Assembly (NCBI GenBank): GCA_027460535.1
Contig: JAPZAR010000031.1
Coordinates: forward strand, 30,001 to 62,000
Reading direction: 5' to 3'
Origin: Candidatus Methanoperedens sp.
GTDB lineage: Archaea > Halobacteriota > Methanosarcinia > Methanosarcinales > Methanoperedenaceae
Length of the DNA stretch: 32,000 nt
The notes under the pieces are model-generated. The model had not been told where the DNA came from. It worked only from the letters and a program-made list of their open reading frames with translations, and ran no database searches. This document shows, piece by piece, positions 10,245 through 30,478 of the stretch (its first letter is position 1; each line of letters starts with the position of its first letter). A program made the translations under genes and the position numbers.

Positions 10245-11273
10245 ATGAAATATATATATATAGTGTTACTTGCTTCTATTTTGATACTAAGTGGATGTAC
10301 TGGCACCACAACCGATGGGTCTCTGCAGATTAAAACTGAGGAATTGCCGCAATGGATCTCTGGAGGGACTGCTACATACAAACCTGAAGTCACGGGAGGA
10401 AAACCCCCATATAACTTTTCAATTGGTGATGGAACGTCTCTTCCGCCAGGATTCAACATGGGACCAGACGGAACTATTGGAGGAGGTGGTACTCTTGCGC
10501 CAGGATCATCAAAAAGTATTTCGCAGCCATTCATGTTTGTTGTGACAGATAGCGCTGGAAATACGGCAAAAATCTCATACACTATAGTCATCACAGAACC
10601 GCCAATTGGAATTGTCCCGCAGGAAGTGGCATGCACCGTAAATCAAAGATGTAATGAAGTGATTGCGACAGCGACACGAGGAAATCCGCCGTACACATTC
10701 CAATCAGATACATTCCGGGAAGGCGCTCCACCGCTTGGAACAATCATTGATGTGAACGGCAGACTTACAGGAATACCGACGCAGGCAGGAGAATACACAG
10801 TTGGAGTTTGTGTAAAAGACACAGTGGCAAATTCAAAATGCGGGCATGCAACAGTGATCATCACTGAAGAAAACAATAATAGAATCAATGGAACAATATG
10901 GAAAGGAAGTTATTCAGAAAAAGAAACCAGCGAAGCATGTGTCAATACAAATAGCGGAACATTGGCATGGAACTTGAAAATCAGCGGAGATTCATTCAGT
11001 GGGACTGTTACTGATGATGGAGCAAGTATTTCATCGACCTGTGCGGGAGCAGAAACTGGCAGCTTTACAACATCCGGGACTGTCACAGGAACAATTTCAG
11101 GAGACTCATTCACAGGAACAATGGTTCTTAGCGGGGCAGGAGGAACATATAATCTTCCGGTACAGGGAACCATCACTGATGATACGATCACAGCGACATA
11201 TACGGGAACAGGAGCATTTTCAGATGGTTCAAGTACGACATATGTTGGCTCATTCACATTGAAAAGACAGTGA
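10245..11273 (+). CDS. secreted lipoprotein with two putative-Ig (He_PIG/dystroglycan-type) domains and a Gly/Thr/Ser-rich repeat C-terminus
   Basis: There is a lipobox-like signal MKYIYIVLLASILILSGC. GGKPPYNFSI...LPPGFNMGPDGTI and RGNPPYTFQS...LGTIIDVNGRLTGIPTQAGEYTVGVCVKD match the putative-Ig-domain pattern. The C-terminus repeats GDSFSGTVT and GDSFTGTMV. Confidence 0.7.
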   Translation: MKYIYIVLLASILILSGCTGTTTDGSLQIKTEELPQWISGGTATYKPEVTGGKPPYNFSIGDGTSLPPGFNMGPDGTIGGGGTLAPGSSKSISQPFMFVVTDSAGNTAKISYTIVITEPPIGIVPQEVACTVNQRCNEVIATATRGNPPYTFQSDTFREGAPPLGTIIDVNGRLTGIPTQAGEYTVGVCVKDTVANSKCGHATVIITEENNNRINGTIWKGSYSEKETSEACVNTNSGTLAWNLKISGDSFSGTVTDDGASISSTCAGAETGSFTTSGTVTGTISGDSFTGTMVLSGAGGTYNLPVQGTITDDTITATYTGTGAFSDGSSTTYVGSFTLKRQ

Positions 11274-11407: not shown

Positions 11408-11806
11408 ATGAACCATTGGAAAGTATTGGCATTAGTAATGATTGGCCTGCTGGCTGTTGCAGTCGGACTAAGATTTACCTTTATTGAGACGCATGGATTT
11501 GCGCTGAACGAGTCGCAGAAGAGTTTTGCAATAAAATCAGCTCAGAATGGGTTGAGAAATGAAATTGGAAATAACGATTATAATGTTACTGTCCAGGACC
11601 ATGGATCGATAATATCAACGGCAAACGGGGATAAAAAGGTCGTCCGTGTTGTCCTCAATCAGGGAAATATAACCCTGACCGCTCTTGTCGATATGGATAC
11701 AGGCAGTGTTGTGGAAAAGACCCGGACGGAGTCCAGCGGATGGATAACGGATTTCCAGAATCAAAATCCAAAGCGCTGGGGCCATCAGCAATTATTTAAC
11801 CGGTGA
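11408..11806 (+). CDS. small N-terminally anchored PepSY-like protein carrying the HGFALN motif
   Basis: The TM anchor is WKVLALVMIGLLAVAVGL, followed by ETHGFALN. SFAIKSAQNGLRNEIG...VVRVVLNQGNITLTALVDMDTGSVVE is PepSY-like. Its stop lies 1 nt before the ABC ATPase start. Confidence 0.6.
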   Translation: MNHWKVLALVMIGLLAVAVGLRFTFIETHGFALNESQKSFAIKSAQNGLRNEIGNNDYNVTVQDHGSIISTANGDKKVVRVVLNQGNITLTALVDMDTGSVVEKTRTESSGWITDFQNQNPKRWGHQQLFNR

Positions 11807-11807
11807 A

Positions 11808-12488
11808 ATGATGGAAAATATAATGGAAATGGAAGATGTATGGAAAATTTATCGCATGGGTGAGTTTGATGTACCTGCGCTTGCGGGAATAGACCTGGCC
11901 ATCAAGGCAGGTGAGTTCGTGGCAATAACAGGACCAAGCGGATGCGGTAAGTCAACGATGCTAAATATGGTTGGCTGCATGGACATGCCCACAAAAGGCA
12001 GGGTGCTGCTTCAAGGCAGGGACATATCAGAATTTAACAGCAATGAGCTTGCGCGCACAAGAGGGAAAAAAATCGGATTTGTATTCCAGACGTTCAATCT
12101 GTATCCTACCCTTACAACACTGGAAAACATTCAGCTCCCGATGAGGATCCATGAATTTCCTCAGAGCGATATAGAGGAGACGTCAAGAAAACTGCTAGCT
12201 ACTGTTGGTTTATCTGAACGTGGAGGTCATTTTCCTTCCCAGTTATCAGGCGGACAGCAGCAGAGAGTTGCAGTAGCAAGATCACTCTCCACAGGTCCTT
12301 CCATTCTACTTGCAGACGAGCCTACAGGGAATCTGGATACAAAATCAGGAAGCGAAATAATGGATGTTTTCAAACGCTTGAACAGCGAGGGATTAACTAT
12401 TGTAATGATAACGCACGACATGAGGATTGCAGGATATGCAGGAAGAGTTGTTAAGATGCTTGATGGAAAAATTATAGGTGGAACATGA
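11808..12488 (+). CDS. ABC transporter ATP-binding protein, MacB/LolD-type (cassette 1)
   Basis: Walker A is GPSGCGKST, the Q-loop is FVFQ, the signature is LSGGQQQRVAVARSL, Walker B is ILLADEPTGNLD, and the H-loop is ITHD. Confidence 0.92.
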   Translation: MMENIMEMEDVWKIYRMGEFDVPALAGIDLAIKAGEFVAITGPSGCGKSTMLNMVGCMDMPTKGRVLLQGRDISEFNSNELARTRGKKIGFVFQTFNLYPTLTTLENIQLPMRIHEFPQSDIEETSRKLLATVGLSERGGHFPSQLSGGQQQRVAVARSLSTGPSILLADEPTGNLDTKSGSEIMDVFKRLNSEGLTIVMITHDMRIAGYAGRVVKMLDGKIIGGT

Positions 12489-13681
12489 ATAAATTCAATT
12501 TAATTTTGATAGTCGTTTCAACAGTATTGTTATCAATGGTCGCATCTGCTCAATCAAATTATCTTGTGACTGAAAGCGCACCCGTTTTTCCAGGAGATAC
12601 GACCTATGTCTATGTGCCGATACAGAATATGGGGTTCGGTACGTTCATGGAAGATGTATCGGCCAGACTGGAGCCCAAAGATAATGCTTCAGCCAATTCA
12701 GTAACGATCCTTGATGATGCGTATTCATTGGGAACTATAAACAATTGGGGAGACCAGAGAACTGCAAAATTCAGGATCCACATAAATCCTGATGCCACGG
12801 AAGGAGAGTATTATTTCAATGTTTATATTACCTACAAGGGCCAGCAAATGAATAGCGGTACGCAACAAACTCCGGTAACAACCAAGCTGGAGGACCAGAT
12901 ATTAACTATTAAGGGGAAGCCCTTGATAGTGCTGCTCAATTCAACGCTTGGAACCATAGCACCGATGAGCATTAATAAGGAGACTCTGCAATTCAAAAAT
13001 ACAGGCACAGGCACACTACAGAGCGCCGTGGCTGGAATAGACCTTACAGGAACGAATTCAGCGTTTTCCATTCTTGGCGCAGGGACTCTGTTTTCCCTCG
13101 GCAACCTGAAGGCAGGAGATGAGGCAGATATTACATTTGATCTGGCCGTAGATATTGCGGCCCATCCTGGTGTATATAATCTTCCTATAACAATTACAGG
13201 ACTGAACAATTATTCCTCCGATAATTTTGTTGGACTGGTTGTCGCAGGGACAACTAATTTTGAGATAAGTTACCAGGAAACTCTGGGCTCTTTTTCGCTA
13301 AATGTCGCCAACGTAGGGATAAGTCCTGCCAGTGCAGTGACAGTAACCCTTCCGCGACAAAAGAACTTCTCTTCAACAGGGAGCAGTTCTTCTGTGCTTG
13401 GGAATTTAAATCCGGGTGATTACACATCAGCCATATTCCAGATTGCAAAAATACCGGGTGCTGGCAACGGTCTTGAGGTCTACATACAATATACCGACAC
13501 AAGCGGACAGAGACAATCGATTACAAAGTATCTTCCTGTGGAATTATCCCAGTCTGGCACACAAACCAGGTCAGCAAGCACAAATTATACAACATGGTTA
13601 TTTGCAGCTATTGTTATACTGGCAATATACTGGCAGAGAAGAAAAATAACAACATATTTCCAGAAACAAAAAGGAAGGTGA
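12485..13681 (+). CDS. secreted three-domain Ig-like (CARDB / COG1361 'S-layer-like' type) protein with C-terminal TM anchor (cassette 1)
   Basis: The signal peptide is MNKFNLILIVVSTVLLSMVASAQS. Modules repeat, each ending in G(N/T)L..GD...F.I....A..G.Y (for example GNLKAGDEADITFDLAVDIAAHPGVYNLPITI and GNLNPGDYTSAIFQI). The C-terminal anchor is WLFAAIVILAIYWQRRK. There is an ATGA start/stop overlap with the ATPase gene. Confidence 0.7.
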   Translation: MNKFNLILIVVSTVLLSMVASAQSNYLVTESAPVFPGDTTYVYVPIQNMGFGTFMEDVSARLEPKDNASANSVTILDDAYSLGTINNWGDQRTAKFRIHINPDATEGEYYFNVYITYKGQQMNSGTQQTPVTTKLEDQILTIKGKPLIVLLNSTLGTIAPMSINKETLQFKNTGTGTLQSAVAGIDLTGTNSAFSILGAGTLFSLGNLKAGDEADITFDLAVDIAAHPGVYNLPITITGLNNYSSDNFVGLVVAGTTNFEISYQETLGSFSLNVANVGISPASAVTVTLPRQKNFSSTGSSSSVLGNLNPGDYTSAIFQIAKIPGAGNGLEVYIQYTDTSGQRQSITKYLPVELSQSGTQTRSASTNYTTWLFAAIVILAIYWQRRKITTYFQKQKGR

Positions 13682-13720
13682 GACCCTGTATTTAAACACG
13701 GGGACTGACGAGGACTAAAT

Positions 13721-14971
13721 ATGAAGACTTTTGACATTTTCAAATTATCCCTGAGCCATGTAAAAAAAAGCAAGATGCGAAGCTGGCTCACTATAATAGG
13801 TATTGTAATAGGCGTAGCCGCTGTCGTAGCTATAATTTCCATTGGCCAGGGAATGCAGGAGAGCGTGGCGGCTCGTCTGGGAAGCCTTGGAGCCGATCTG
13901 ATCACGGTCACTCCGGGTTTTTCACGGGCTTCAGGCGGGGGTTTTGAAGGGAGATCGGCTGGTTCCGGAGGTAGCATTAACCTCACTGATAAAGACGTGA
14001 ATGTGATTAAGCAGGTGCCGGGCGTGCTCTATGTAAACGGCATGGTATCTGGCCGGGCGGATATGATATTGGGTACTGAGAAGACCTCCGTATCTATCAG
14101 CGGTATTGATACCGCGGTCTGGCGTTCCATGGTCACCACGCAGCTTGAAGCAGGCAGATATCTTCAGCCGGGCGATTCAAACGCTGTAGTCATTGGCTAC
14201 TCTTTAGCGCACGAAACTTTTTTACAGCCGATCACCCTGAACAGGCCGGTTACAATAGGGGGCAAGACTTTCAAAGTCGTTGGAGTATTCGTACAATCAG
14301 GTGGAGGTTTTGGAGGGGGAAGTGATAATGCAGTATATATGTCGGATGATTTTGCCAGGGATGTGATAACCACGAATGTATCCAGGAATACATTTACGTC
14401 GATTACGGTAAAGGTAACGGACCCCGCGCTGGCGAGTAAAATAGCCGATGATATTGTAGCAAAACTTATGCCGTCGAGGCACGTCAATCCGAGAACCAGA
14501 GATTTTACAGTCACGGCGTTCGCAACAATACAACAACAGATAACCAGTGTCGTCCAGACCATATCGCTGTTCCTTGCTTCGATAGCGGCAGTTTCGCTTC
14601 TGGTAGGAGCTGTGGGTATAGCGAATACCATGTTCATGTCTGTTATGGAACGCACAAGGCAGATAGGACTGCTCAAGGCATTGGGCGCTACGGATAATGA
14701 AGTAATGAAACTTTTCCTTATAGAATCAGGATTATTTGGGTTCGTAGGAGGGGTGCTGGGAATAATTTTTGGCGTACTGATATCCCTCATAATATCCGTA
14801 GTTGGTCTTAGGGCAATAGGACCGGGCGGGACAATGAACGCAGTCGTCTCACCAGAGCTTCTTATTTTTGCACTTGGATTCTCCGTATTCGTAGGCGTGG
14901 TCTCAGGCGTCGTGCCTGCAAGGACAGCCGCAAAGATGAACCCTGTGGATGCCCTGCGTTTTGAGCAATAA
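13721..14971 (+). CDS. ABC transporter permease, MacB/FtsX family (cassette 1)
   Basis: KMRSWLTIIGIVIGVAAVVAIISIGQG is the MacB N-terminal TM. A large extracytoplasmic domain follows. The C-terminal FtsX domain is LLVGAVGIANTMFMSVMERTRQIGLLKALGAT...PARTAAKMNPVDALRFE. Confidence 0.9.
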   Translation: MKTFDIFKLSLSHVKKSKMRSWLTIIGIVIGVAAVVAIISIGQGMQESVAARLGSLGADLITVTPGFSRASGGGFEGRSAGSGGSINLTDKDVNVIKQVPGVLYVNGMVSGRADMILGTEKTSVSISGIDTAVWRSMVTTQLEAGRYLQPGDSNAVVIGYSLAHETFLQPITLNRPVTIGGKTFKVVGVFVQSGGGFGGGSDNAVYMSDDFARDVITTNVSRNTFTSITVKVTDPALASKIADDIVAKLMPSRHVNPRTRDFTVTAFATIQQQITSVVQTISLFLASIAAVSLLVGAVGIANTMFMSVMERTRQIGLLKALGATDNEVMKLFLIESGLFGFVGGVLGIIFGVLISLIISVVGLRAIGPGGTMNAVVSPELLIFALGFSVFVGVVSGVVPARTAAKMNPVDALRFEQ

Positions 14972-14996
14972 GAGGTGAACATATAAAATTGAAAAA

Positions 14997-15002
14997 TTTT
15001 TT
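14997..15002 (+). terminator. oligo-T tract downstream of cassette 1 permease (candidate archaeal terminator)
   Basis: A T6 run lies about 25 nt after the stop at 14971. Archaeal termination typically uses oligo-T signals. Confidence 0.3.
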
Positions 15003-15156
15003 ACTGAAAACTTGTGATAGTATTAATTCATGTTTAATACAGAATTTTAACTGGCCACCTTACTCATTGGTCAGGTATCCTGCGACGCCCATTATGCTGA
15101 ATTATGGTTGGAGACTATAACTTATGTTTTGGCAAGCATACAATTTATCAGTAAGC

Positions 15157-16065
15157 ATGAAAGTTCGAACAGCCTTGTTCTTGATGATACTGCTGATAAA
15201 TTCCACACATGCACAGGAAATCCCACACGAGGAGCAGGTATTGCTAAATGGTTATGTGGACAATTCCGGGAAAGTTCTCTTGACAGGCTATGCCACACCC
15301 GGATCTCTATCTTATATGCATTTCTTAAACGGGACACAGTATACCTTCGACAACAATACCAGCCAGCTTTATGCCGTAACAGATATGCTGACATCAAAGA
15401 GCGCAGATACATGGTCGCTCAACTTTTCTTCAGAAGGTTATTATTCAGATTATTCTGTAACATTTTATCTTCCGCCTGGTTCTGAGGTCACGAAATTTGA
15501 CATACAGCCGGAACTCAATTATCAATTCCAGGTCAAGGAGGACTCGCTTACCTTATCCATACAGGGATACAGGGTGGTGTCTCCCTGGATCAAAGTGGAT
15601 TACAAAGTACCGGCCGAAGTACAGGGTCAATCAAGTGGTCTGGTTACTTCCGTGCTTCCTGTATCACTAATTATTGTGTTGATTGCTGGAGCTACTTTCC
15701 TGATCTATAGACGCAGAATGCAGAAAAAAACAGCCATTCCTGAGAAAAAAGAATCACAGGATCAAGAGAAAAAAGTTATCCCTGAAACAAAACCTGAAAC
15801 GAAAGAAATCCATGCCACGGGCGAGATGCAAAAGGTCATAGATACTCTTTCCGATAAGGAGAAGGCAATAATAGGCTTATTGTTAAAAAACGGAGGTTCT
15901 GCAACGCAGGCTGATATTCGATATGAGATCATGATTCCAAAATCTTCGCTTACAGGCATATTAAACGCTTTAAAGAGGAGAAACATAATAAAAAAGCATG
16001 AATATGGAAGAACGAATGTTATAGAACTTTCAGAATGGTTTTTGTCAGAAAAAGAATTCAAATAG
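15157..16065 (+). CDS. membrane-tethered MarR/TrmB-like winged-helix regulator with extracytoplasmic N-terminal domain
   Basis: The signal peptide is MKVRTALFLMILLINSTHAQ. An extracellular domain of about 170 aa rich in N-x-S/T follows, then the TM VLPVSLIIVLIAGATFLIY and RRR. A K/E-rich linker leads to the wHTH LSDKEKAIIGLLLKNGGSATQADIRYEIMIPKSSLTGILNALKRRNIIKKHEYGRTNVIEL. The ATG at 15157 is preferred over 15124. Confidence 0.7.
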   Translation: MKVRTALFLMILLINSTHAQEIPHEEQVLLNGYVDNSGKVLLTGYATPGSLSYMHFLNGTQYTFDNNTSQLYAVTDMLTSKSADTWSLNFSSEGYYSDYSVTFYLPPGSEVTKFDIQPELNYQFQVKEDSLTLSIQGYRVVSPWIKVDYKVPAEVQGQSSGLVTSVLPVSLIIVLIAGATFLIYRRRMQKKTAIPEKKESQDQEKKVIPETKPETKEIHATGEMQKVIDTLSDKEKAIIGLLLKNGGSATQADIRYEIMIPKSSLTGILNALKRRNIIKKHEYGRTNVIELSEWFLSEKEFK

Positions 16066-16080
16066 GAAACAGTCTGGTTT

Positions 16081-16575
16081 ATGGATGATTTGGATTATTT
16101 CAAGGAGTTGGCAGCCGATATACAGCACTCTGAAATTAATATACCCATAATGGATATCGAATTGACCCTCAGTGTGAAATATTTTTTGAATGACTCCGGA
16201 GTAGGCTACTGCAGCTTATTAATTAATAAAATTCATGCTAGCGGTTTGAAAGGAAATATAGAAGCTGCAGCAGCAGAGGCTTATGTGGGAAGGTCAATCT
16301 TCATTTTTTTATCTGAATTGGATGATGGGCTGAAACTAATCACAGTACCTGCTTTATTTGAAAAGCAATCATGCCTTGATGAAAAAATATATTTGGCTAA
16401 TTTTATTGTAAATGCATATTATCCTGCGGATTTCAAGAAAACAGCTCACGAGGTCTATGAAGAGCATATGAACGCCTTGATCGGAAAAAAGATACGCAAA
16501 GATGTAGCCTATCTCTCGCGCAGCATTCTTAATCTTCCAACAATAGCCCTTGAAATATTGAGATGTTATAGATAA
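16081..16575 (+). CDS. hypothetical cytoplasmic protein
   Basis: A 164-aa ORF on the same strand, 15 nt after the regulator gene. I recognised no motif. Confidence 0.45.
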   Translation: MDDLDYFKELAADIQHSEINIPIMDIELTLSVKYFLNDSGVGYCSLLINKIHASGLKGNIEAAAAEAYVGRSIFIFLSELDDGLKLITVPALFEKQSCLDEKIYLANFIVNAYYPADFKKTAHEVYEEHMNALIGKKIRKDVAYLSRSILNLPTIALEILRCYR

Positions 16576-16765
16576 TAGTTCTTTTTGGGTTTTCTCCAAA
16601 TTCAATTCCTAATTCAAATAAAACCCTTTAAATGATGATTAATATCTCAATTCCCTATTATGAGCCGCTTCTCCTCCGCTATACGATCAAGTTCAGGACT
16701 CAGCTGGGATGGATATATTGCGAAATTTCGGAATTCGACAGGAATGAGGAATAATTCAATGATGA

Positions 16766-16846
16766 TTCGATGCAGGAATCTGGATGGCCTCATGTCGCCA
16801 TTTTGAACTTTCAGATGGTTTTTTATCAAAAAATGAACCAAAATAA
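16766..16846 (+). pseudogene. 3'-terminal remnant (copy A) of a paralog of the wHTH regulator gene
   Basis: The frame reads ...FELSDGFLSKNEPK*, which aligns with the intact regulator C-terminus VIELSEWFLSEKEFK*. An in-frame stop lies at 16763-16765, so no gene body remains. Confidence 0.55.
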
Positions 16847-16863
16847 AGCATTTTTATTATAAC

Positions 16864-16895
16864 GTTCTGCATCGCATTTATGTATCGTTCGATCC
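16864..16895 (+). promoter_or_regulatory. conserved 32-nt promoter/operator element, copy A
   Basis: The sequence is GTTCTGCATCGCATTTATGTATCGTTCGATCC. It has a TATA-like core (TTTATGTAT) flanked by GTTC-containing arms. GGTGA and an ATG follow 24 nt downstream. It matches copy B at 27 of 32 positions. Confidence 0.6.
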
Positions 16896-16919
16896 AACCC
16901 GACATCTTAGGTGAAGAAA

Positions 16920-16973
16920 ATGAGAATGACCATGAAACTACCATTGCAGGATAGCCGTCAAGCCCCGGAGTGA
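16920..16973 (+). pseudogene. 5' remnant of an HGFALN-family gene (17 codons then stop)
   Basis: ATGAGAATGACCATGAAACTACC aligns with the start of the 18235 gene, ATGAAAATAACGAAGAAAACAGC. It sits at the same spacing from the 32-nt element. It translates as MRMTMKLPLQDSRQAPE*. Confidence 0.5.
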
Positions 16974-16997
16974 AGGCTTTACTGAAAGGAGATTGAT

Positions 16998-17885
16998 ATG
17001 AGACAAAAATTATTCTATGCAATTATTCCACTGATATTCCTTGGTCTTCTGGCACAGACAAATCCTGGGCAGAAAATTACAGCGGAACGAGCAATCGATC
17101 CAAGTCTTAATGTCGGCAGAGGACTGAATTTCTCCAATAACTGGGCCGGGTATGTCGCTACAGGGGGTACTTTTACTTCGGTAAGCGGATCATGGAGCGT
17201 CCCGCAGGTAAGCGCAACAGGAACTTCAGCCGACGCAACCTGGGTGGGCATTGGAGGTACAGCCGGTAATCATTTAATTCAGACGGGAACGCAGGCTTTA
17301 GCCAATAACAATGGCAAGGTTAGTTACCAGGCCTGGTATGAGATGTTGCCGGCGAACTCCCAGGAAATTCCGCTCACGATCAACTCCGGTGATTCCATTA
17401 CCGCTTCTATTGTCCAGCAATCAGCGAACCACTGGACGATCTCTTTGAGTGATGATACCACAGGCCAGAATTACCAGACAACAGTTACCTACGCCGCATC
17501 CTTATCCTCAGCAGAATGGATCCAGGAAATGCCGGTTCGCGGCAGATCTTTCATTCCGCTCGATAATTTCGGCTCCGTACAATTCAGCGCTTTATCGGCT
17601 GTTAAAGACGGCACTGCACTGACCCCTGCCCAGGCTAACGCGCACTCTATAGTCATGGCTAATAATCTCCGTCAGGTCCTGGCTCACCCTTCAGCCCTGG
17701 GAAGCGATGGAGCCAGTTTCACCGTAGCCCGCACCTCTTCAACATCGACGCAGATCGTTTCTCCCTCAGGAAGGACCGGCTGGCGCAGAGTTGTGACAGA
17801 CGTCCATGGTATCCAGCCATTGAACGGGCAAAGCCACAGTAGAGGAAGATTCAAAGGTGGATTCGGCCAGAGATTTGAACACTAG
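16998..17885 (+). CDS. peptidase family G1 (eqolisin / scytalidoglutamic-peptidase-like glutamic peptidase), secreted
   Basis: The signal/anchor is MRQKLFYAIIPLIFLGLLAQT. The motifs SNNWAGY, TWVGIGG, LIQTG (catalytic Gln position), YQAWYEMLP, SAEWIQE (catalytic Glu position) and DNFGSVQF parallel SNWAGA, AWVGIDG, LQTG, AWYEWYP, AEWIVE and DFGSVTF of scytalidoglutamic peptidase as I recall it. AGGAG lies upstream of the ATG. Confidence 0.8.
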   Translation: MRQKLFYAIIPLIFLGLLAQTNPGQKITAERAIDPSLNVGRGLNFSNNWAGYVATGGTFTSVSGSWSVPQVSATGTSADATWVGIGGTAGNHLIQTGTQALANNNGKVSYQAWYEMLPANSQEIPLTINSGDSITASIVQQSANHWTISLSDDTTGQNYQTTVTYAASLSSAEWIQEMPVRGRSFIPLDNFGSVQFSALSAVKDGTALTPAQANAHSIVMANNLRQVLAHPSALGSDGASFTVARTSSTSTQIVSPSGRTGWRRVVTDVHGIQPLNGQSHSRGRFKGGFGQRFEH

Positions 17886-17950
17886 TTACCACCTCAACGA
17901 TCGTTCAAATACAGAAGAACTTAGTGAATTGTAGCTCTGCACTCCTCCTA

Positions 17951-17980
17951 TTTTTCTCCAGTTTTCAGTTCCTTTTTTTT
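17951..17980 (+). terminator. oligo-T tracts downstream of the G1 peptidase gene
   Basis: A T5 run at 17951-17955 and a T8 run at 17973-17980 lie within 100 nt of the stop. Confidence 0.35.
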
Positions 17981-18100
17981 ATTCGTTCATTTTCCCCAAG
18001 CAAGCTTATTGCTAATATTCGTGCAATACACGTAGAAAAATCTTAACTTACGGGTAATAGTGCTCCAAAGATGATATATATGGTAAAAAAGGATAATAGT

Positions 18101-18160
18101 GAACTTATGAACGTTATAGAACCATTAGAATGGTTTTTATCCAAAAAAGAACTCAAATAA
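18101..18160 (+). pseudogene. 3'-terminal remnant (copy B) of a paralog of the wHTH regulator gene
   Basis: It translates as ELMNVIEPLEWFLSKKELK*, against the intact GRTNVIELSEWFLSEKEFK*. DNA similarity to 16006-16065 is obvious (aaYgttatagaac...agaatggttttt...aaaagaaYtcaaata). Stops TAA TAG TGA lie immediately upstream. Confidence 0.65.
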
Positions 18161-18178
18161 GGCTCATTTCATGTCAAA

Positions 18179-18210
18179 GTTCTGCATCGAAATTAAGTAT
18201 CGTTCAATCA
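18179..18210 (+). promoter_or_regulatory. conserved 32-nt promoter/operator element, copy B
   Basis: The sequence is GTTCTGCATCGAAATTAAGTATCGTTCAATCA. GAGGT and the ATG at 18235 follow 24 nt downstream. Confidence 0.65.
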
Positions 18211-18234
18211 AAGTAGGCATTCGAGGTAAATCAA

Positions 18235-18834
18235 ATGAAAATAACGAAGAAAACAGCAATATTGACATTGTTTACTGCGGTTTTGTTGGTTTCTGCACCA
18301 TTGGCAGTAACTGTATTTGCCCAGCCTTCGGGTCCGGGTATGGGAAGAGGATACGGGGCATCGCATAACGCTATGGGAACGTTCAGACAGAATATTGTAC
18401 CTATAGTCATGGGGCACGGGTTTGCTTTGAATCCATCAGATACAACCCAATATCACGTTCTGGATGTGACGGCTATGAAGATCAGTAATGCAACGCAAAG
18501 TCGAACCAGAGCTAATCTCAGATTCGCAGGTCAGCCGTATAGTCTCACCATAACAGGCTATACCAACACATCACTAGTTGGAACCATATATACGGTGCCT
18601 CCGCGGGGGACGAACCATGCGGGTTTCACCCCAAGTGAAGCAGGTAGCATCTCGCTTTCAATGTCTAAATATGAAGGGGTAATGCTCTCAAATGGAACTC
18701 TAACAATGACCTCCGGTACGAATTACACTGGAACTTACAATGTACTACTGACATCCCCTGATATAGCATCCGGTGGCGGAATGCACAATGCCAATGGAAT
18801 GTTCGGAGCGCGTAAGTTCGGATCGGGCAATTAG
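18235..18834 (+). CDS. secreted HGFALN-family protein (paralog of 23047..23601) with Met/Gly/His/Asn-rich termini
   Basis: The signal is MKITKKTAILTLFTAVLLVSAPLAVTVFAQP. It shares blocks with the 23047 protein: GHGFALN, YH(V/I)LDV, LRFAG..Y.L.ITGY.N.SL.G, GTN..(G/S)FTP, G.ISLS..KYEG..L..GTLTM. Its tails are GPGMGRGYGASHNAMGTF and GGGMHNANGMFGARKFGSGN. Confidence 0.7.
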   Translation: MKITKKTAILTLFTAVLLVSAPLAVTVFAQPSGPGMGRGYGASHNAMGTFRQNIVPIVMGHGFALNPSDTTQYHVLDVTAMKISNATQSRTRANLRFAGQPYSLTITGYTNTSLVGTIYTVPPRGTNHAGFTPSEAGSISLSMSKYEGVMLSNGTLTMTSGTNYTGTYNVLLTSPDIASGGGMHNANGMFGARKFGSGN

Positions 18835-18933
18835 AAATAGAAAAAGGATAGTAATGGGAATCCCCCAAGCGGGGATTCCTTTAATATCCCTCAATATAAA
18901 TATATTAACAAAAAAGAGACAAGAAGGAGATGT

Positions 18934-19446
18934 ATGAATAGGAAAGGCGTAGTAGTGTTACTTTTGTTAACATTAGCAATTCTTTCAGGAGCACCGGAGT
19001 CTTTCGCACGGCTCCAGTATCTTACAAATCTCACCGCAGTGTATAGCGCTGGTTCATGCGGCACCTGCCATGTAATAGCTTCAGGCAGTGGAATGCGCAA
19101 CTCCAGCGGGATGTTCGGACAGAACAATTCTAACGGAACTTATGTTCCACGCAACACCAGCAGAACACCGGGGATGCGCCGCTCTAACGGAACGTTTGGA
19201 ATGCGTTCCTCAAACAGAACGTTGCCGCTTAACTCGTACGGAACGTTATTTGCTAACCAGCCTGACCACGCTACCGATCCCAGTGCAGCCCTGATGGCTA
19301 TAGGGCAGCCACCTGCAGCAAACCCACAAGATAGCCCCGCAGATACAGCCGTGACAGGGACTAAAGCGGCTCCAGGGTTCGGAATTGTGTTATCCCTGGT
19401 CGGATTATTTGCATTGGCTCTTCTGGCAAGGCGGAAAAATAAATGA
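18934..19446 (+). CDS. secreted monoheme (single CxxCH) protein with Asn/Gly/Met/Arg repeats and a canonical PGF-CTERM archaeosortase signal
   Basis: The signal is MNRKGVVVLLLLTLAILSGAPESFA, with one CGTCH motif. Repeats are SGMRNSSGMFGQNNSNGT and PGMRRSNGTFGMRSSNRT, with many N-x-S/T sequons. The C-terminus is APGFGIVLSLVGLFALALLARRKNK, that is PGF plus a TM plus a basic tail. AGGAG lies upstream of the ATG. Confidence 0.8.
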   Translation: MNRKGVVVLLLLTLAILSGAPESFARLQYLTNLTAVYSAGSCGTCHVIASGSGMRNSSGMFGQNNSNGTYVPRNTSRTPGMRRSNGTFGMRSSNRTLPLNSYGTLFANQPDHATDPSAALMAIGQPPAANPQDSPADTAVTGTKAAPGFGIVLSLVGLFALALLARRKNK

Positions 19447-19506
19447 TTATGACTGGTCTTAATTTCAGTCGCACTTTTTACGTTCAATTCTTATTCAACA
19501 GGTAAT

Positions 19507-20214
19507 ATGATGGAAAATATAATGGAACTGAAGGACGTCTGGAAAATCTACAAGATGGGCGAAGTGGAAGTGCCGGCTCTGAAAGGAATAAGCGTTGAAA
19601 TAAAGAAGGGAGACTTTGTGGCTATTATAGGTGCCTCGGGAAGCGGCAAATCTACAATGATGAACCTGATAGGCTGCCTGGATATTCCTTCCAGAGGAAG
19701 CTTATATCTCCGATCGCAGGACATCAGCACATTAAGCGAATCAGACCTTGCCTCATTCAGGGGTAAGACTATCGGTTTTATTTTCCAGCAATACAACCTG
19801 ATCCAGTCGATGTCTGCTTTTGAGAACGTGATGCTTCCACTGGAATTCTTAGAATATGATGACCAAAAAGCAGCAAACAGGGCAAGAGAAATACTGACAC
19901 TGGTGGGGTTGAGTGATAAGATGCATCATCGTCCGACACAGCTTTCAGGTGGTCAGCAGCAGAGAGTGTCCATAGCAAGATGCCTTGCTGGCGACCCTGA
20001 GATAATCCTTGCGGATGAACCGACCGGAGCACTCGACAGTGTTACAGGCAGAGAAGTCCTGGATATGCTTCACAGATTGTGGGAAGAGCATGGAAAAACG
20101 ATCATAATGGTCACTCACGACCTTAATCTGGCTAAATATGCTCACACAACAATTGAACTGAAAGACGGAGAGATTTTGAAAATATCTGAAAATAACGAGG
20201 TAAATAAAAAATGA
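19507..20214 (+). CDS. ABC transporter ATP-binding protein, MacB/LolD-type (cassette 2)
   Basis: Walker A is GASGSGKST, the signature is LSGGQQQRVSIARCL, Walker B is IILADEPTGALD, and the H-loop is VTHD. The first 21 nt (ATGATGGAAAATATAATGGAA) are identical to the cassette 1 ATPase gene. Confidence 0.92.
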   Translation: MMENIMELKDVWKIYKMGEVEVPALKGISVEIKKGDFVAIIGASGSGKSTMMNLIGCLDIPSRGSLYLRSQDISTLSESDLASFRGKTIGFIFQQYNLIQSMSAFENVMLPLEFLEYDDQKAANRAREILTLVGLSDKMHHRPTQLSGGQQQRVSIARCLAGDPEIILADEPTGALDSVTGREVLDMLHRLWEEHGKTIIMVTHDLNLAKYAHTTIELKDGEILKISENNEVNKK

Positions 20215-21572
20215 AAAAAATAATGTTTCCGGTTTTGATAATACTGGTATTGACAGCTTACACACCTGCAGTTTATGCAGATTTAGCAGATCTAGCAGGC
20301 TCATCAGTACTATCAGTAAGCCTTGCAAACTCTGACCCTAATCCTGCTATTGCAGGAAATACCGTGGATGTTCGTATAGGTATCCAGAATATCGGGGGTA
20401 CGACTACTAGCGATCTTATGATGGAAGTTATACCACAGTATCCTTTTGAGCTTGTACCAGGTGAAAACGCAGTTCAGGATGTAGGAATAGTTCAACCCTA
20501 TCAGAAGAGTGATCCTACTGTAAATATAAAAGTCATACTGTACCATATGCAGATAAACAGGAATGCTCCGGCAGGTAGTTACCAATTCAAAGTTAAGTAT
20601 TATGAGGCGGGTTCAACCGATGTGACCCAGCAAAGCCTGTCCATTGATGTGAAGAGCAAAGAAAACGCTGAAGTGATCCACATTGGCCAGACGATGCTCG
20701 TTCCGGGAAGGCAAAGCAGCTTAATATTCACGATCAATAATGTCGGGAATGCACCCCTCCGGGATCTGACTTTCAGCTGGGCGAATGATGAAAAGATAGT
20801 TCTCCCAGTCGGGAGTGACAATACCAAATATATCAGGTACATCGATATTGGCAATGGCACTGACCTGGAATACCAGGTGATGGCAGATACTAATGCAGTG
20901 CCGGGATTATACAAACTGAACTTATACCTGACTTATGAAGATTCAATGACAAACCAAACCAAAACAATAAGCACATTTGCCGGGGTGTATGTTGGCGGAG
21001 GAACGGATTTCGATGTGGCATACTCAGATAATGCGAACAGCCAGATGTCTTTCAGCGTTGCCAATATAGGAAGCAACCCAGCAAACTCGGTATCTGTGGT
21101 TATTCCCGATCAGCCGGTCTGGAGTGTAAGCGGCCCAAATTCAGTCATCATAGGTAATCTGAACAAAGGAGACTATACGGTTGCAAGCTTCAAATTGCAA
21201 TCCTCAATGAGTAATATGACTTCCCAGAATAGAGCCTCCAGAAACAATACCAATTTCCAGGGAAGGCAAAGTCCAACAAATATCTCATCCGATACAGTGC
21301 TCATACAAATAGCCTATACCGATACCATGGGAGTAAGAAATGTCGTTGAAAAACAGGTCAAAATCGGATTTCAAAATATGGCATCTCCAAGCGCTATGCA
21401 GGGACGAAGAGGAGCCACACAACCAACAAGTGTACTCTCTAATAACATGCTGTATTTCTTCGGCATAATAGTGCTCGTTGGCGCAGTTGTAGTCCACAGG
21501 AAATACAAGAGCCGCAAACTGCTTGATCCTGGTTTCAAAATGAAGGATTTATTCAAACGCGAGAAGAAATGA
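20211..21572 (+). CDS. secreted three-domain Ig-like (CARDB / COG1361-type) protein with C-terminal TM anchor (cassette 2)
   Basis: The signal is MKKIMFPVLIILVLTAYTPAVYA. Its modules repeat: NPAIAGNTVDVRIGIQNIGG...APAGSYQFKVKY; SSLIFTINNVGNAPL...VPGLYKLNLYLTY; FSVANIGSNPANSVSVVIP...GNLNKGDYTVASFKL. The C-terminal TM is MLYFFGIIVLVGAVVVHRKYK. It has the same ATGA overlap with the ATPase gene as in cassette 1. Confidence 0.7.
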   Translation: MKKIMFPVLIILVLTAYTPAVYADLADLAGSSVLSVSLANSDPNPAIAGNTVDVRIGIQNIGGTTTSDLMMEVIPQYPFELVPGENAVQDVGIVQPYQKSDPTVNIKVILYHMQINRNAPAGSYQFKVKYYEAGSTDVTQQSLSIDVKSKENAEVIHIGQTMLVPGRQSSLIFTINNVGNAPLRDLTFSWANDEKIVLPVGSDNTKYIRYIDIGNGTDLEYQVMADTNAVPGLYKLNLYLTYEDSMTNQTKTISTFAGVYVGGGTDFDVAYSDNANSQMSFSVANIGSNPANSVSVVIPDQPVWSVSGPNSVIIGNLNKGDYTVASFKLQSSMSNMTSQNRASRNNTNFQGRQSPTNISSDTVLIQIAYTDTMGVRNVVEKQVKIGFQNMASPSAMQGRRGATQPTSVLSNNMLYFFGIIVLVGAVVVHRKYKSRKLLDPGFKMKDLFKREKK

Positions 21573-21591
21573 TAATTTCCTGCGGGTCAAA

Positions 21592-22824
21592 ATGAAACTA
21601 AATAAATGTTTCAAACATGCGTTTAACATGGTACTTCACAGCAAGCTGCGAAGCTGGCTGACTATAACGGGCATAGTCATAGGTGTTGCTGCGGTTATTG
21701 CGATTGTTTCGATAGGAGACGGGATGCAGCAAACGCTGAATGCACAATTGAACGCTCTTGGCGGAGACATCGTTACAATCACAGCCGGCGCTGAACGGGG
21801 TGGCGGCATGTATGGTATGAGAGGCGGCGGGGGAGGAGGAGGCCAGGCAACGACCAAAGAAATAGTACTGGGCAGAAGTGACCTCCAGGCATTGAAGGGT
21901 ATACCTGATATTGCTCTGATCGACACAAATATCAGAGAGAGTGTGAATATATCCTATCTTGGCAAAACAGGGAAAGTATCTGTAACAGGCGTTGACCAGA
22001 AAGTATGGTCTCAAATTACTACTACTACTATACAAACTGGCAGGATGCTTGATTCTGCTGACCAGAACGTCATAGTTATCGGGGGAAATCTCGCATCCTC
22101 TTATTTTTCCCAGCCTGTCGGGATTAATAAGATGGTAACGATAAACGCCGCTGCTTTCAGGGTTGTGGGAATTCTTAATGACCAGACCACCAGCGTTTAC
22201 ATGCCGATCCAGATGGCATACCAGGTGATGCCAGACAAGACGAATGATATCTACGACACACTTGTTGTTAAGATCAGGAATCAGGACCAGTTAGATTTTG
22301 TAATCACGGAAATCCAGAATAAACTTATGATTTCAAGACATGTCACTCAAAATACAATGGATTTTTCAGTCACTTCAAGGAAGGAAATGCAGCAGGCCAG
22401 AGCGGCTACGATGAGTTCAATGAGCACATTTCTGCTTGCAATTGCAGCGGTTTCATTGATTGTGGGTTCCATCGGTATTGCAAATACCATGTTCACTTCC
22501 GTCCTTGAAAAGACTAAGGAAATCGGGATAATGAAAGCTATCGGCGCGCGCAATCCCGACATTTTGCTCATATTCCTGTTCAATGCAGGATTTATCGGAC
22601 TCGTTGGTGGAATAATTGGCGTAATCCTCGGAACAATGCTTTCTGGCTTCATGCCTGCGCTTATGGGGGGAGGTCTTCCCATGGCAAGAGGGGGCACAAT
22701 AGTGACATTGAACTCAATAATGATGGCATTATCAGTATCGGTCATAGTAGGAATTCTTGCAGGAATAATACCTGCGTACCAGGCATCGAAATTGAGGCCT
22801 GTTGATGCTCTGAGATACGAATAA
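21592..22824 (+). CDS. ABC transporter permease, MacB/FtsX family (cassette 2)
   Basis: KLRSWLTITGIVIGVAAVIAIVSIGDG is followed by an extracytoplasmic domain. The FtsX domain is LIVGSIGIANTMFTSVLEKTKEIGIMKAIGAR...PAYQASKLRPVDALRYE. Confidence 0.9.
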   Translation: MKLNKCFKHAFNMVLHSKLRSWLTITGIVIGVAAVIAIVSIGDGMQQTLNAQLNALGGDIVTITAGAERGGGMYGMRGGGGGGGQATTKEIVLGRSDLQALKGIPDIALIDTNIRESVNISYLGKTGKVSVTGVDQKVWSQITTTTIQTGRMLDSADQNVIVIGGNLASSYFSQPVGINKMVTINAAAFRVVGILNDQTTSVYMPIQMAYQVMPDKTNDIYDTLVVKIRNQDQLDFVITEIQNKLMISRHVTQNTMDFSVTSRKEMQQARAATMSSMSTFLLAIAAVSLIVGSIGIANTMFTSVLEKTKEIGIMKAIGARNPDILLIFLFNAGFIGLVGGIIGVILGTMLSGFMPALMGGGLPMARGGTIVTLNSIMMALSVSVIVGILAGIIPAYQASKLRPVDALRYE

Positions 22825-23046: not shown

Positions 23047-23601
23047 ATGAAACTGACTAAAAAAACAGCAATATTCTTTACAGCTGTAATTCTGGTTTCA
23101 GTGATAATTGCATTGGCAGTGTTTGCCCGGCCCATGGGTAAGGAAAAGGGGCATGTAAGACCATTCATTGAGCCCATACTCATTGGGCACGGATTTGCGC
23201 TGAACGGAAACGACTATCACATTTTGGATGTGAATGCTATAAAAACGATTAACGTATCCCATGGTTTTATCCATTCCCTGCTTTCGAATAAAAAAAGCCC
23301 GGGAGAGATCGAAAAAGAAATAAACGATGCGAAAATAGCGACCATGACCAGGGCGCATCTCAGATTTGCAGGTAAGGTATATGCTCTCAACATAACAGGT
23401 TATGATAACCAGTCTCTTACGGGAGATGTGTTGACACTGCTCACGCATGGTACCAACCAGACAAGCTTCACTCCGACTTCAGTAGGAAACATCTCGCTGT
23501 CAACGTTAAAATACGAAGGTGAATCGCTCATAACGGGTACTCTGACCATGAACGGCACAGATTACAGGGTGTTTATGACTTCGCCAATGGCACTTAGATA
23601 A
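23047..23601 (+). CDS. secreted HGFALN-family protein (paralog of 18235..18834)
   Basis: The signal is MKLTKKTAIFFTAVILVSVIIALAVFARP. It contains GHGFALN, YHILDVNAIK, AHLRFAGKVYALNITGYDNQSLTG, GTNQTSFTPTSVGNISLSTLKYEGESLITGTLTMNG. Confidence 0.7.
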   Translation: MKLTKKTAIFFTAVILVSVIIALAVFARPMGKEKGHVRPFIEPILIGHGFALNGNDYHILDVNAIKTINVSHGFIHSLLSNKKSPGEIEKEINDAKIATMTRAHLRFAGKVYALNITGYDNQSLTGDVLTLLTHGTNQTSFTPTSVGNISLSTLKYEGESLITGTLTMNGTDYRVFMTSPMALR

Positions 23602-23755: not shown

Positions 23756-24637
23756 TTGCAAATCGGAGTCAGCGATATTCATACTCACACCATGTATTCA
23801 GGTTTTTCTGAATATTCGTTTTTATCATACCCGGACAGTGTGACCACTCCCAGGACATCCATCAAGGTCGCCGAAAAACTTGGGCTCAATGTTCTCTGCA
23901 TAACTGATCACAACACGATCAAAGGCGCAGTTCAAGCTCGGAAGTATAATAAAGAACTGGTGGTAATTGGTGAAGAAATCTCTTCTATCGATGGTGAAAT
24001 ACTGGGATTATTCCTTCAAGAGCAAATAAATCCGGGCTTAAGTGCGGAAGAAACGATAGAACAGATACATAGTCAGGATGGGATGGCCATTGCTCCGCAT
24101 CCTTTTAGCGCACATTGTTCGTGCATAGGCAAAAAAATGAACACGTTGAGATTAGATGGAATAGAAGTATTCAATGCATTACACAGGGACGGGTATTCAA
24201 ACGCTATCGCCCTTGAAAATTGTAACGGGAATGCGAAGCTTGGCGGAAGTGATGCGCATGCAAGTAACATGATAGGAAATGGTTATACTTTATTTGATGG
24301 ATATTCTCATGAAGATCTGCGGGCCAGCATAAAAAATAAGCAGACGATTTATGGTGGAAAAGTAGCACCTCTGTTTGAATTCGTCAATTATAGTGCCCGG
24401 GTAGCATATGAATCGTCAAAAACCATCCTGAATTTCAATGATGTAGATTGCCCCATGTCTGCCAGAATATCCAGGGTAAGAAATTCACGCAAATTCATGT
24501 ATTTGTTTGGTTCTATTTTGTATGCATTTTCACCACTACCGGTGGTTTGCACACTTATTGGAGATAGAATCTTGAAAAAGAAAGGAAGAAAAATATGGAG
24601 AGATGCCCACAGTTTTTCCTCTTTAGGAAAGGAATGA
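23756..24637 (+). CDS. PHP-domain metal-dependent phosphoesterase with C-terminal hydrophobic tail
   Basis: The motifs DIHTHTMYS, LCITDHNT, VIGEEIS, AIAPHPF and GGSDAHA are PHP-family metal-ligand motifs. The TTG start follows GAGG. Confidence 0.75.
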   Translation: MQIGVSDIHTHTMYSGFSEYSFLSYPDSVTTPRTSIKVAEKLGLNVLCITDHNTIKGAVQARKYNKELVVIGEEISSIDGEILGLFLQEQINPGLSAEETIEQIHSQDGMAIAPHPFSAHCSCIGKKMNTLRLDGIEVFNALHRDGYSNAIALENCNGNAKLGGSDAHASNMIGNGYTLFDGYSHEDLRASIKNKQTIYGGKVAPLFEFVNYSARVAYESSKTILNFNDVDCPMSARISRVRNSRKFMYLFGSILYAFSPLPVVCTLIGDRILKKKGRKIWRDAHSFSSLGKE

Positions 24638-28870: not shown

Positions 28871-28906
28871 AAAGGGAAGAAGAAACCGTGCGAATAGAAT
28901 GCAATT

Positions 28907-29065
28907 TCAGGATTTTTGATACGCACTATCGATAAAGTCTTTATGTTGTTTTGACCAGATCTTATTTGGTGTTTTCTTTAGCCACTCAACGTACATGTCG
29001 ATGAATTCCAATCTTTCCTTGAAATTTTCCTCTTTTTCCTTTTTCAATGTTTCCAGATCAATCAT
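28907..29065 (-). CDS. small hypothetical ORF (52 aa)
   Basis: My own translation is MIDLETLKKEKEENFKERLEFIDMYVEWLKKTPNKIWSKQHKDFIDSAYQKS*. It is below the ORF-track size cut-off. A frameshifted fragment (...IKEIKYWSKKERTDTPAKSGSWTWDG*) precedes it. Whether it codes is unproven. Confidence 0.3.
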   Translation of the reverse strand: MIDLETLKKEKEENFKERLEFIDMYVEWLKKTPNKIWSKQHKDFIDSAYQKS

Positions 29066-29450
29066 CGTTCAACCGTCCCAGGTCCAGCTTCCACTTTTAG
29101 CAGGCGTATCTGTTCTTTCCTTTTTAGACCAATACTTTATCTCTTTAATATGTCTGCGGGATGTTCATTAGCTATCGTTGATGTCGACATTTTTACTAGT
29201 CCTTTTACAATAGTAACAGAGACTTCAAACTTTAATAACTTTCTGAAACGAAGGATGCAAAGTTTCAGGTATTCGAAGGCGGCGCAGCGTATCACTGGAA
29301 ACTCTCTTAAATTGTGGCTGCAAGAGAAATTACAGGAGCAGAATAAGAAGAATCAGCAAAAAAGTTCATATCAGTTCGCTGCTGATGAATCCACCGCAAA
29401 GGGCGCAAAGAACGCAAAGCGCAGAAGTATATTATAAAAATTATAAATCT

Positions 29451-29558: not shown

Positions 29559-29637
29559 AATAATTGTAAATGCAATGGGATATTGGCAGAAAAACTTATT
29601 TTTTTATACATTGATAATATCTCTCATGCACAGCTAG

Positions 29638-30461: not shown

Positions 30462-30478
30462 TAACAAAGGGAAATAAC

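Follow-up and report, generated by a model that had tools for sequence, protein, structure and literature searches.

A conserved gene order of ABC ATPase, Ig-like protein and MacB/FtsX-type permease in archaea, present in two cassettes of Candidatus Methanoperedens

Two cassettes in a Candidatus Methanoperedens contig

We analysed a stretch of 32,000 nucleotides from a chromosomal contig in a metagenome-assembled genome of Candidatus Methanoperedens sp. (contig JAPZAR010000031.1, positions 30,001 to 62,000; the whole stretch is referred to as the window), which carries two gene cassettes for ATP-binding cassette (ABC) systems. Cassette 1 (11808-14971) and cassette 2 (19507-22824) each consist, in this order, of genes for an ATPase, for a protein predicted to be built of immunoglobulin-like (Ig-like) domains with a C-terminal transmembrane (TM) helix, and for a MacB/FtsX-type permease (Table 1). 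The place of the Ig-like gene between the two transporter genes, and what it may mean for the function of the encoded proteins, are the subject of this report. An earlier note, made from the sequence of the window, had listed these open reading frames (ORFs) in this order, and the ORFs were found exactly at the coordinates it gave.

Table 1. Genes of the two cassettes and associated genes in the window
Feature	Position	Strand	Description
132-amino-acid protein	11408..11806	+	N-terminal TM anchor and extracytoplasmic domain of about 100 amino acids; first gene of the cassette-1 operon; stop 1 nucleotide before the ATPase start
Ig-like-linked ABC ATPase 1	11808..12488	+	MacB-NBD (nucleotide-binding domain)/LolD/MJ0796-like; ABC_tran 7.7e-33; public gene call starts at 11823
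Ig-like subunit 1 (Ig1)	12485..13681	+	predicted signal peptide, three CARDB-like beta-sandwich domains, linker, C-terminal TM helix 368-393, basic tail
MacB/FtsX-type permease 1	13721..14971	+	TM1, large extracytoplasmic MacB_PCD, three C-terminal TM segments; MacB_PCD 2.4e-34, FtsX 2.7e-23
Membrane-bound one-component regulator	15124..16065	+	signal/TM segment, extracytoplasmic domain, TM helix, cytoplasmic DUF7343/MarR-like winged helix-turn-helix (wHTH); DUF7343 2.4e-14, residues 242-302
199-amino-acid secreted or anchored protein	18235..18834	+	accompanies cassette-2-type operons; no Pfam family
170-amino-acid secreted protein	18934..19446	+	upstream of ATPase 2; one CxxCH (CGTCH) and a PGF-CTERM archaeosortase signal (Pfam 3.8e-06, TIGR04126 2.5e-08)
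ABC ATPase 2	19507..20214	+	ABC_tran 4.5e-33; best PDB match MJ0796; public gene call starts at 19522
Ig-like subunit 2 (Ig2)	20211..21572	+	predicted signal peptide, three beta-sandwich domains, linker, TM helix 412-438, conserved cytoplasmic tail RKYKSRKLLDPGFKMKDLFKREKK
MacB/FtsX-type permease 2	21592..22824	+	MacB_PCD 1.5e-29, FtsX 5.5e-17; four TM segments; public gene call starts at 21628
184-amino-acid paralogue of 18235..18834	23047..23601	+	downstream of cassette 2; 44% identical, BLASTP 2e-44

In both cassettes the Ig-like gene overlaps the ATPase gene by ATGA (at 12485 and 20211), as the earlier note had described, and it is separated from the permease gene by 39 nucleotides in cassette 1 and by 19 in cassette 2. 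The identity of the first 21 nucleotides of the two ATPase ORFs (11808-11828 and 19507-19527; ATGATGGAAAATATAATGGAA) was likewise confirmed, with no match in 100 shuffles, and is conspicuous against an overall protein identity of only 51%. Because the public gene call starts both ATPases 15 nucleotides further downstream, part of the common 21-mer may be a translation-initiation region rather than coding sequence. Similar ATPase 5' ends (ATGGAAAnnATAATGGAA, MMExIMEL) occur in both Methanoperedens cassette types (L004, L013, L056 and other loci of the survey reported below) and not in the DPANN or Methanosarcina relatives of cassette 2; the likeness could reflect local gene conversion or a common translation-initiation element. 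Scans of the window for tRNA genes and Rfam families gave no match, nor did a tblastn search against PLSDB plasmids.

Family assignment of the ATPases and permeases

The Walker A, LSGGQ, Walker B and H-loop motifs are intact in both ATPases (ABC_tran E about 1e-33). In NCBIfam they come closest to LolD, MacB-NBD, DarD and FtsE, all under the equivalog cut-offs, and ATPase 2 matches MJ0796 best in the PDB (4e-68), followed by MacB NBDs, with a chain of 5XU1 at 2.3e-64. Pfam places MacB_PCD and FtsX at residues 21-246 and 287-408 of permease 1 and at residues 21-243 and 283-401 of permease 2. Among PDB entries the permease is closest to MacB (5LIL, 1.6e-43), and it also matches the Streptococcus pneumoniae Spr0695 permease (5XU1, 1.7e-33). 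Hydropathy plots give permease 2 four clear TM segments, with a large loop between TM1 and TM2; the five peaks of permease 1, two of which overlap, were interpreted as four segments.

The ATPase motifs and MacB/LolD/FtsE-type NBD kinship, together with a four-TM permease that combines MacB_PCD and FtsX, are those of type VII ABC systems. On the evidence of these domain, family, PDB and TM-layout matches, both cassettes are classified by sequence as split type VII (MacB/FtsX-class) ABC systems, in keeping with the MacB/LolD-type ATPases and MacB/FtsX permeases named in the earlier note. Scores for the individual families within this class all fall short of their cut-offs. NF007826, the MacB equivalog that models a fused NBD-permease (cut-off 966 bits), scores 219 and 251 bits with the ATPases and 162 and 142 bits with the permeases, which are encoded here by separate genes. 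The ATPases reach 221 and 231 bits against LolD (TIGR02211, cut-off 307.75) and 212 and 210 bits against FtsE (cut-off 264.85), and the permeases reach 76 and 70 bits against LolC/E (TIGR02212, cut-off 362.45) and 30-42 bits against the FtsX models (cut-offs 225-255). PADLOC returned generic ABC-ATPase and LolE-TM domain matches only, with none for the Ig-like proteins, the small companion proteins or the regulator, and no known defence system.

The Ig-like protein

AlphaFold2 models of Ig1 and Ig2 have the same layout. A hydrophobic helix at the N terminus is followed by three beta-sandwich domains and a disordered linker, and at the C-terminal end stands a TM helix with a basic tail. The models agree with the signal peptide, three Ig-fold modules and C-terminal anchor that had been read from the sequence. 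The confidence score (pLDDT) is 76 for Ig1 and 79 for Ig2, the latter modelled from an alignment of 62 sequences and showing a disordered insert at 338-358 in domain 3. We take the N-terminal helix to be a Sec signal peptide, with probable cleavage sites, judged by eye, at ASA/Q and VYA/D.

The match to CARDB (PF07705) is marginal: the cut-off is 22.7 bits, Ig1 scores 25.2 and Ig2 22.7, and neither protein would pass on any one stretch alone; many relatives have precomputed PF07705 or PF10633 matches and carry the NCBI name "COG1361 S-layer family protein". Searches with the Ig-like proteins gave no NCBIfam match and no PDB sequence match at E<=1, and Pfam and NCBIfam detected no PGF-CTERM or similar sortase-type motif in either of them. 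With both models, Foldseek retrieved generic tandem-Ig proteins only (integrin alpha legs, alpha-2-macroglobulin domains and ciliary ASH-domain proteins), which we rejected as solved relatives of the family. No S-layer protein is found among the top 50 Foldseek matches of either model. The 'S-layer' label is historical. Adaptors of the membrane fusion protein (MFP) type consist of an alpha-hairpin, a lipoyl domain and a beta-barrel; the third component of these cassettes is all beta-sandwich, and none of the 20 window proteins scanned has a HlyD/MFP match in Pfam.

Conservation within the family climbs toward the membrane, from 1.67 bits in domain 1 to 2.26 in domain 2 and 2.49 in domain 3. 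In the Ig2 subfamily the cytoplasmic tail is conserved as well (RKYKxRKLx[DN]PxF[KR]xKDLFKxKK) and is common to DPANN and Methanoperedens relatives. This gradient and the tail motif fit a resident subunit that touches a conserved partner. A HMMER profile built from Ig1, Ig2 and their relatives matched 2977 clusters at 50% identity, 249 of them below 1e-30, and among the 150 clusters listed most are of 400-500 amino acids with a signal peptide, a C-terminal TM helix and a basic tail. Fusions of the Ig-like protein to ABC components were sought and discarded as a line of evidence, as the long members of the family carry only extra CARDB-like domains.

Residues 270-380 of Ig1, which comprise domain 3 and the TM anchor, have weak Pfam matches to TRAP_beta, and several relatives have the same match precomputed. 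In eukaryotes TRAP_beta (translocon-associated protein beta) is an Ig-like protein with a single membrane pass that partners the Sec61 translocon; the likeness may be one of common topology only.

The triad is conserved across archaea

A scan of GTDB species genomes yielded at least 79 loci and at least 546 confirmed relatives. Homologues of the ATPase, the Ig-like protein and the permease were placed by tblastn in the 79 loci and in eight further ones, giving 87 Ig-like genes. The permease gene lies directly downstream on the same strand in all 78 of the Ig-like genes with enough downstream sequence, and the ATPase gene lies directly upstream in 71 of the 74 with enough upstream sequence. Methanococcus maripaludis accounts for two of the three exceptions; there a gene for a multi-TM protein of 160 amino acids stands between the ATPase and Ig-like genes, and the locus on JAGINF010000001.1 runs PadR, HAAS, ATPase, 160-amino-acid TM protein, COG1361 protein, permease. 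A four-nucleotide start/stop overlap is compatible with 40 of 75 ATPase/Ig-like and 34 of 82 Ig-like/permease junctions, both figures being upper estimates.

The triad was found in Methanoperedenaceae, Methanocellales, Methanosarcina, Methanolobus, Methanococcoides, Methanohalophilus, Methanomethylovorans and Methanococcus, and also in the DPANN lineages Woesearchaeota, Nanoarchaeota and Aenigmarchaeota. Distant members unrelated to Methanoperedens (P0193, P0242, P0427 and P0376) show the same order by independent gene calls with Pfam labels. All named matches are archaeal, apart from one contig of a metagenome-assembled genome labelled 'Nitrospirae'; as the neighbouring genes there are of archaeal type and its ATPase is 85% identical to ATPase 2, this contig looks mis-binned. 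The linkage of Ig-like genes to MacB-type transporters, which the earlier note had proposed from this window, thus holds in other genomes. Given that the order is kept almost without exception in many archaea, the Ig-like protein probably serves as a fixed third subunit in an envelope pump of archaea.

Evolution of the cassettes

Cassettes 1 and 2 are 51% identical in the ATPase, 25% in the Ig-like protein and 37% in the permease. In all three genes, cassette 2 shows higher identity to cassettes from DPANN, Methanosarcinaceae and M. maripaludis (ATPase 56-71%, Ig-like protein 33-47%, permease 40-64%) than to cassette 1. Cassette 1 represents a lineage of Methanoperedenaceae that also has relatives among the Methanocellales. 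A third Methanoperedens subtype is 63%, 45% and 63% identical to cassette 1 in the ATPase, Ig-like protein and permease, so that there are at least three cassette subtypes in Methanoperedens. These relationships uphold the view that the duplication is old and that the ATPase proteins have clearly diverged.

Distance matrices were built for each of the three proteins from 35 non-redundant triads; any two of them correlate at r about 0.94, and the similarity ranks agree. The triad has therefore been inherited as a unit, and the Ig-like gene has not been swapped. The Ig-like protein evolves fastest (mean distance 0.61, compared with 0.45 for the permease and 0.39 for the ATPase).

Type 2 and type 1 cassettes adjoin one another in four other loci (L006, L007, L009 and L054), in the order opposite to that of the window. 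Thus the cassette region is rearranged between strains yet stays together.

Regulators beside the cassettes

The regulator gene downstream of cassette 1 has counterparts at other loci. In each of the seven scanned loci of Methanosarcinaceae (L061, L064, L067, L068, L069, L072 and L076), and in L085, a protein of the same architecture is encoded immediately upstream of the cassette, and tblastn located homologues of the 15124-16065 protein near cassettes in L013 and L060. Elsewhere the regulators differ: divergent MarR/DUF7343 genes flank the cassette in L086 and L087, a TrmB-type regulator lies near P0376, and the M. maripaludis cassette is accompanied by a PadR–HAAS dyad. Such dyads have been proposed as envelope-stress signalling pairs and are sometimes fused to FtsX/MacB_PCD domains (PMC11237479).

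The cassette thus has a recurrent fourth element, a wHTH regulator of membrane-bound or stress type. As a DUF7343 wHTH, MarR-type or PadR–HAAS regulator usually adjoins the cassette, these neighbours point to an inducible envelope-stress or detoxification module. The earlier note had assigned each cassette a regulator or a regulator remnant but had missed the wHTH regulator as a recurrent element; 15124-16065 encodes an intact DUF7343 wHTH protein and no remnant.

Small companion proteins and other neighbours

In 20 loci of the cassette-1 type, from Methanoperedenaceae and Methanocellales, a homologue of the 11408 protein immediately precedes the ATPase. The 11408 protein has no Pfam family, and a PepSY-like domain, suspected by eye, was dropped after finding no Pfam support in nine homologues at E<=5. 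Homologues of the 18235-18834 protein adjoin cassettes in L013, L018, L060 and L085, and those of the 18934-19446 protein in L013, L026, L028, L032 and L056, the latter being found near cassettes in Methanoperedens only. The CxxCH haem-binding motif and PGF-CTERM signal of the 18934-19446 protein suggest a lipid-anchored monohaem cytochrome.

Of the small secreted proteins that the earlier note had placed with the cassettes, 11408 is a conserved first operon gene, its product being N-terminally anchored, and 18235 and 18934 recur. The further idea that the cassettes export these neighbours found no support, as the small proteins are lineage-specific whereas the triad is pan-archaeal. The string 'HGFALN' stands just after the N-terminal hydrophobic segment in the 11408, 18235 and 23047 proteins. 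As a common motif it was rejected, being kept in the 18235/23047 family ([HQN]GFA[LF]) but not in the homologues of 11408, and the sharing is probably due to chance or to a weak juxtamembrane preference.

Other genes of the window were noted in passing. A PHP-domain gene (23756-24637) recurs beside Methanoperedens cassettes (L007, L015, L020, L023, L054 and L056). Between the two cassettes, 16998-17885 encodes a secreted Peptidase_A4 protein of the eqolisin/scytalidoglutamic type (2.9e-40), with a homologue near the cassette in L018. Directly upstream of the cassette-1 operon, 10245-11273 encodes a protein of 342 amino acids that carries a lipobox-like signal (LILSGC) and matches no Pfam family; it was not found beside cassettes in any other locus. 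An FrhB/FdhB-like gene (6017-7204) is followed by one for a secreted multihaem c-type cytochrome of 400 amino acids with a C-terminal TM helix (7288-8490), a pair that is typical of the extracellular electron-transfer equipment of Methanoperedens. Further downstream lie a gene for a secreted protein of 594 amino acids with no Pfam match (24761-26545), a stretch of 1.6 kb (28871-30478) with no ORF of at least 110 amino acids and no tRNA or Rfam match, and, after it, a 282-amino-acid ORF (30479-31327) whose product looks, by eye, like a phage protein of the Bro-N type.

A proposed mechanism and its alternatives

From the gene content, architecture, order and coupling, co-divergence and regulator association described above, we infer complex formation, direction of work, substrate class and regulation by analogy with MacB, LolCDE, HrtBA and BceAB. 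Our preferred reading, to which we give slightly less than an even chance, is that each cassette encodes an envelope-induced three-component type VII ABC machine that removes an envelope-acting compound with the help of the Ig-like protein as accessory subunit. The machine would consist of an ATPase dimer, a dimer of the four-TM permease with its large extracytoplasmic domain, and the single-pass Ig-like subunit. ATP binding and hydrolysis in the cytoplasm would move the extracytoplasmic domain of the permease (mechanotransmission), and this movement would do work outside the membrane: an amphipathic compound that acts on the membrane or envelope would be removed or expelled from the outer leaflet or the pseudo-periplasm. 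The Ig-like subunit would dock beside the permease through its TM helix and conserved membrane-proximal domain 3, while its two more variable Ig domains would project outward and capture, guide or shield the substrate, a role held in bacteria by the unrelated MFP adaptors. Envelope signals would probably induce expression by way of the membrane-bound DUF7343 wHTH protein next to the cassette, or of the PadR–HAAS dyad in M. maripaludis, and the several diverged paralogous cassettes of a genome would serve different substrates.

Several points weigh against this reading. About 59 of the 79 sampled loci come from Methanoperedens, so the sample is biased towards that genus, and the start codons at the gene junctions were picked by a nearest-start heuristic. 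The AlphaFold2 models of the Ig-like proteins have a pTM below 0.5, which leaves inter-domain geometry and reach unfixed, and without MFP-like features in the Ig-like protein any conduit must be built otherwise. The partial Mantel correlation between Ig-like protein and permease (0.475) compares with 0.457 for Ig-like protein and ATPase and 0.524 for the third pair, giving no Ig-like–permease excess beyond common descent; with all three values alike (0.46-0.52), we set this statistic aside as uninformative on contact. No biosynthetic or toxin genes are consistently linked to the cassettes, and retention in genome-reduced DPANN could mean a housekeeping envelope role rather than detoxification.

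A first alternative is that the cassette transports nothing and instead resembles FtsEX, permease movement switching the conformation of the Ig-like protein, which would then control an extracellular process such as remodelling of the S-layer or surface, subunit insertion, or, in DPANN, contact between cells or with a host. Type VII ABC systems do include non-transporting members that activate an extracellular partner, for instance FtsEX with EnvC, PcsB or RipC (PMC5985334), the Ig-like protein is always co-encoded and often translationally coupled, the cassette is kept in reduced DPANN genomes, and NCBI calls the relatives 'S-layer family'. Several diverged paralogous cassettes, each with a stress-type regulator, nevertheless resemble resistance modules more than one housekeeping machine; there is no enzyme or effector domain in or beside the Ig-like protein, and the NCBIfam scores for FtsE and FtsX are far under their cut-offs. 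We consider this alternative unlikely.

A second alternative, for which we see still less chance, makes the Ig-like protein the cargo: the ABC module would extract its C-terminal anchor in a Lol-like manner, or aid its insertion or display, and deliver it to the S-layer. LolCDE, also of type VII, extracts proteins with a lipid anchor, and the exports of MacB-family pumps include proteins of about 10 kDa (PMC5985334), and both the flexible linker before the TM helix and the strict one-to-one linkage would suit a dedicated cargo. Permanent residence in the membrane is, however, what the conserved membrane-proximal domain and the cytoplasmic tail of the Ig2 subfamily argue for; a PGF-CTERM-like motif was found in the 18934-19446 protein but not in Ig1 or Ig2, and the LolCE and LolD scores are under the cut-offs. 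A third alternative, in which the Ig-like protein would be a surface or S-layer-associated protein in its own right, kept in the operon by history and functionally unlinked to the transporter, is very improbable: databases name the family only 'S-layer family protein' and its extracellular domains evolve fast, yet its place between ATPase and permease is kept across orders and phyla with overlaps and co-divergence, and an unrelated gene would be unlikely to hold its position over such distances.

Returning to the three-component machine, the role of the Ig-like protein as an analogue of bacterial adaptors is plausible by comparison with known systems. A bolder form of the proposal, which we think improbable, is that the COG1361-type Ig-like protein is an archaea-specific class of adaptor, present in several copies around the permease dimer, spanning the pseudo-periplasm to the S-layer and regulated by the wHTH sensor. 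If true, archaea would have their first described apparatus for efflux or extraction that spans the envelope, evolved independently of bacterial MFP adaptors.

Relation to known systems and significance

The nearest functional parallel, by analogy, would be the MacAB-like systems of Gram-positive bacteria (S. pneumoniae Spr0693-0694-0695, 5XU1; YknXYZ of Bacillus subtilis and B. amyloliquefaciens), with the adaptor slot held here by an unrelated Ig-like chain. They too have a split ATPase and MacB-type four-TM permease and a co-encoded, membrane-anchored extracytoplasmic third protein in cells with no outer membrane, and they are tied to resistance against membrane-active peptides. Their third part, in contrast, is an MFP/HlyD adaptor with an N-terminal TM anchor, whereas the archaeal one is predicted to have three Ig-like beta-sandwiches and a C-terminal anchor; the archaeal gene order ATPase, Ig-like protein, permease also differs. 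MFP adaptors accompany MacB homologues in Gram-positive bacteria, which have no outer membrane, and the TM helix and cytoplasmic region of the adaptor stimulate the ATPase (PMC5985334).

The MacAB-TolC systems of Escherichia coli and Aggregatibacter actinomycetemcomitans match the archaeal permease in MacB_PCD and FtsX TM domain and have a closely related NBD, and mechanotransmission is presumed to be alike. MacB, however, is a fused NBD-permease that works with MacA and TolC across two membranes, while the archaeal genes are split and there is neither an MFP nor an outer membrane. Methanoperedens archaea have a single membrane, and no TolC-family exit duct is encoded in the cassettes. FtsEX and LolCDE, the non-efflux members of type VII, are likewise split and act, outside the membrane, either on a partner protein or on a substrate anchored in the membrane; EnvC/PcsB and LolA, the partners in these systems, have no kinship with the Ig-like protein, and the scores for these families lie under the cut-offs here. 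MJ0796 of Methanocaldococcus jannaschii (1F3O, 1L2T, 3TIF), an archaeal LolD/MacB-like NBD, has been studied as an NBD only; it is a widely used structural model of ABC ATPase dimerisation, and its physiological role is not known (PMC8277102).

We found no defined function for the triad in Pfam, NCBIfam, PADLOC, the PDB or the literature, and no functional study of it or of any archaeal type VII ABC system in the open-access literature, where a subscription-only paper could be missed. The MacB-family review does not mention archaea (PMC5985334). One comparative-genomics paper (Makarova et al. 2015, PMC5898192) speaks in passing of "SalXY ABC transporter and S-layer proteins" that adjoin another system in archaeal loci; these COG1361/CARDB 'S-layer family' proteins belong, by NCBI naming, to the same family as Ig1 and Ig2, and the fixed triad, its breadth, its regulators and the role of the Ig-like protein were not analysed there. 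A SalXY-like transporter has also been noted near arCOG01996 loci (PMC4158269), and the few papers that mention COG1361 use it as an S-layer marker.

Type VII ABC systems (MacB, LolCDE, FtsEX, BceAB and HrtBA) are well studied in bacteria, and MJ0796, which is the best known of the archaeal ABC ATPases, is of this class too and has no known function. As the cassette occurs in the genetically tractable M. maripaludis, beside a PadR–HAAS stress regulator, the question is directly testable. If the proposal is correct, function would be gained for about 3000 protein clusters now labelled "hypothetical" or "S-layer family", and a third subunit found from methanogens to DPANN, with no relationship to the adaptors of bacteria, would show how a single-membrane cell with an S-layer couples cytoplasmic ATP hydrolysis to work in its envelope.

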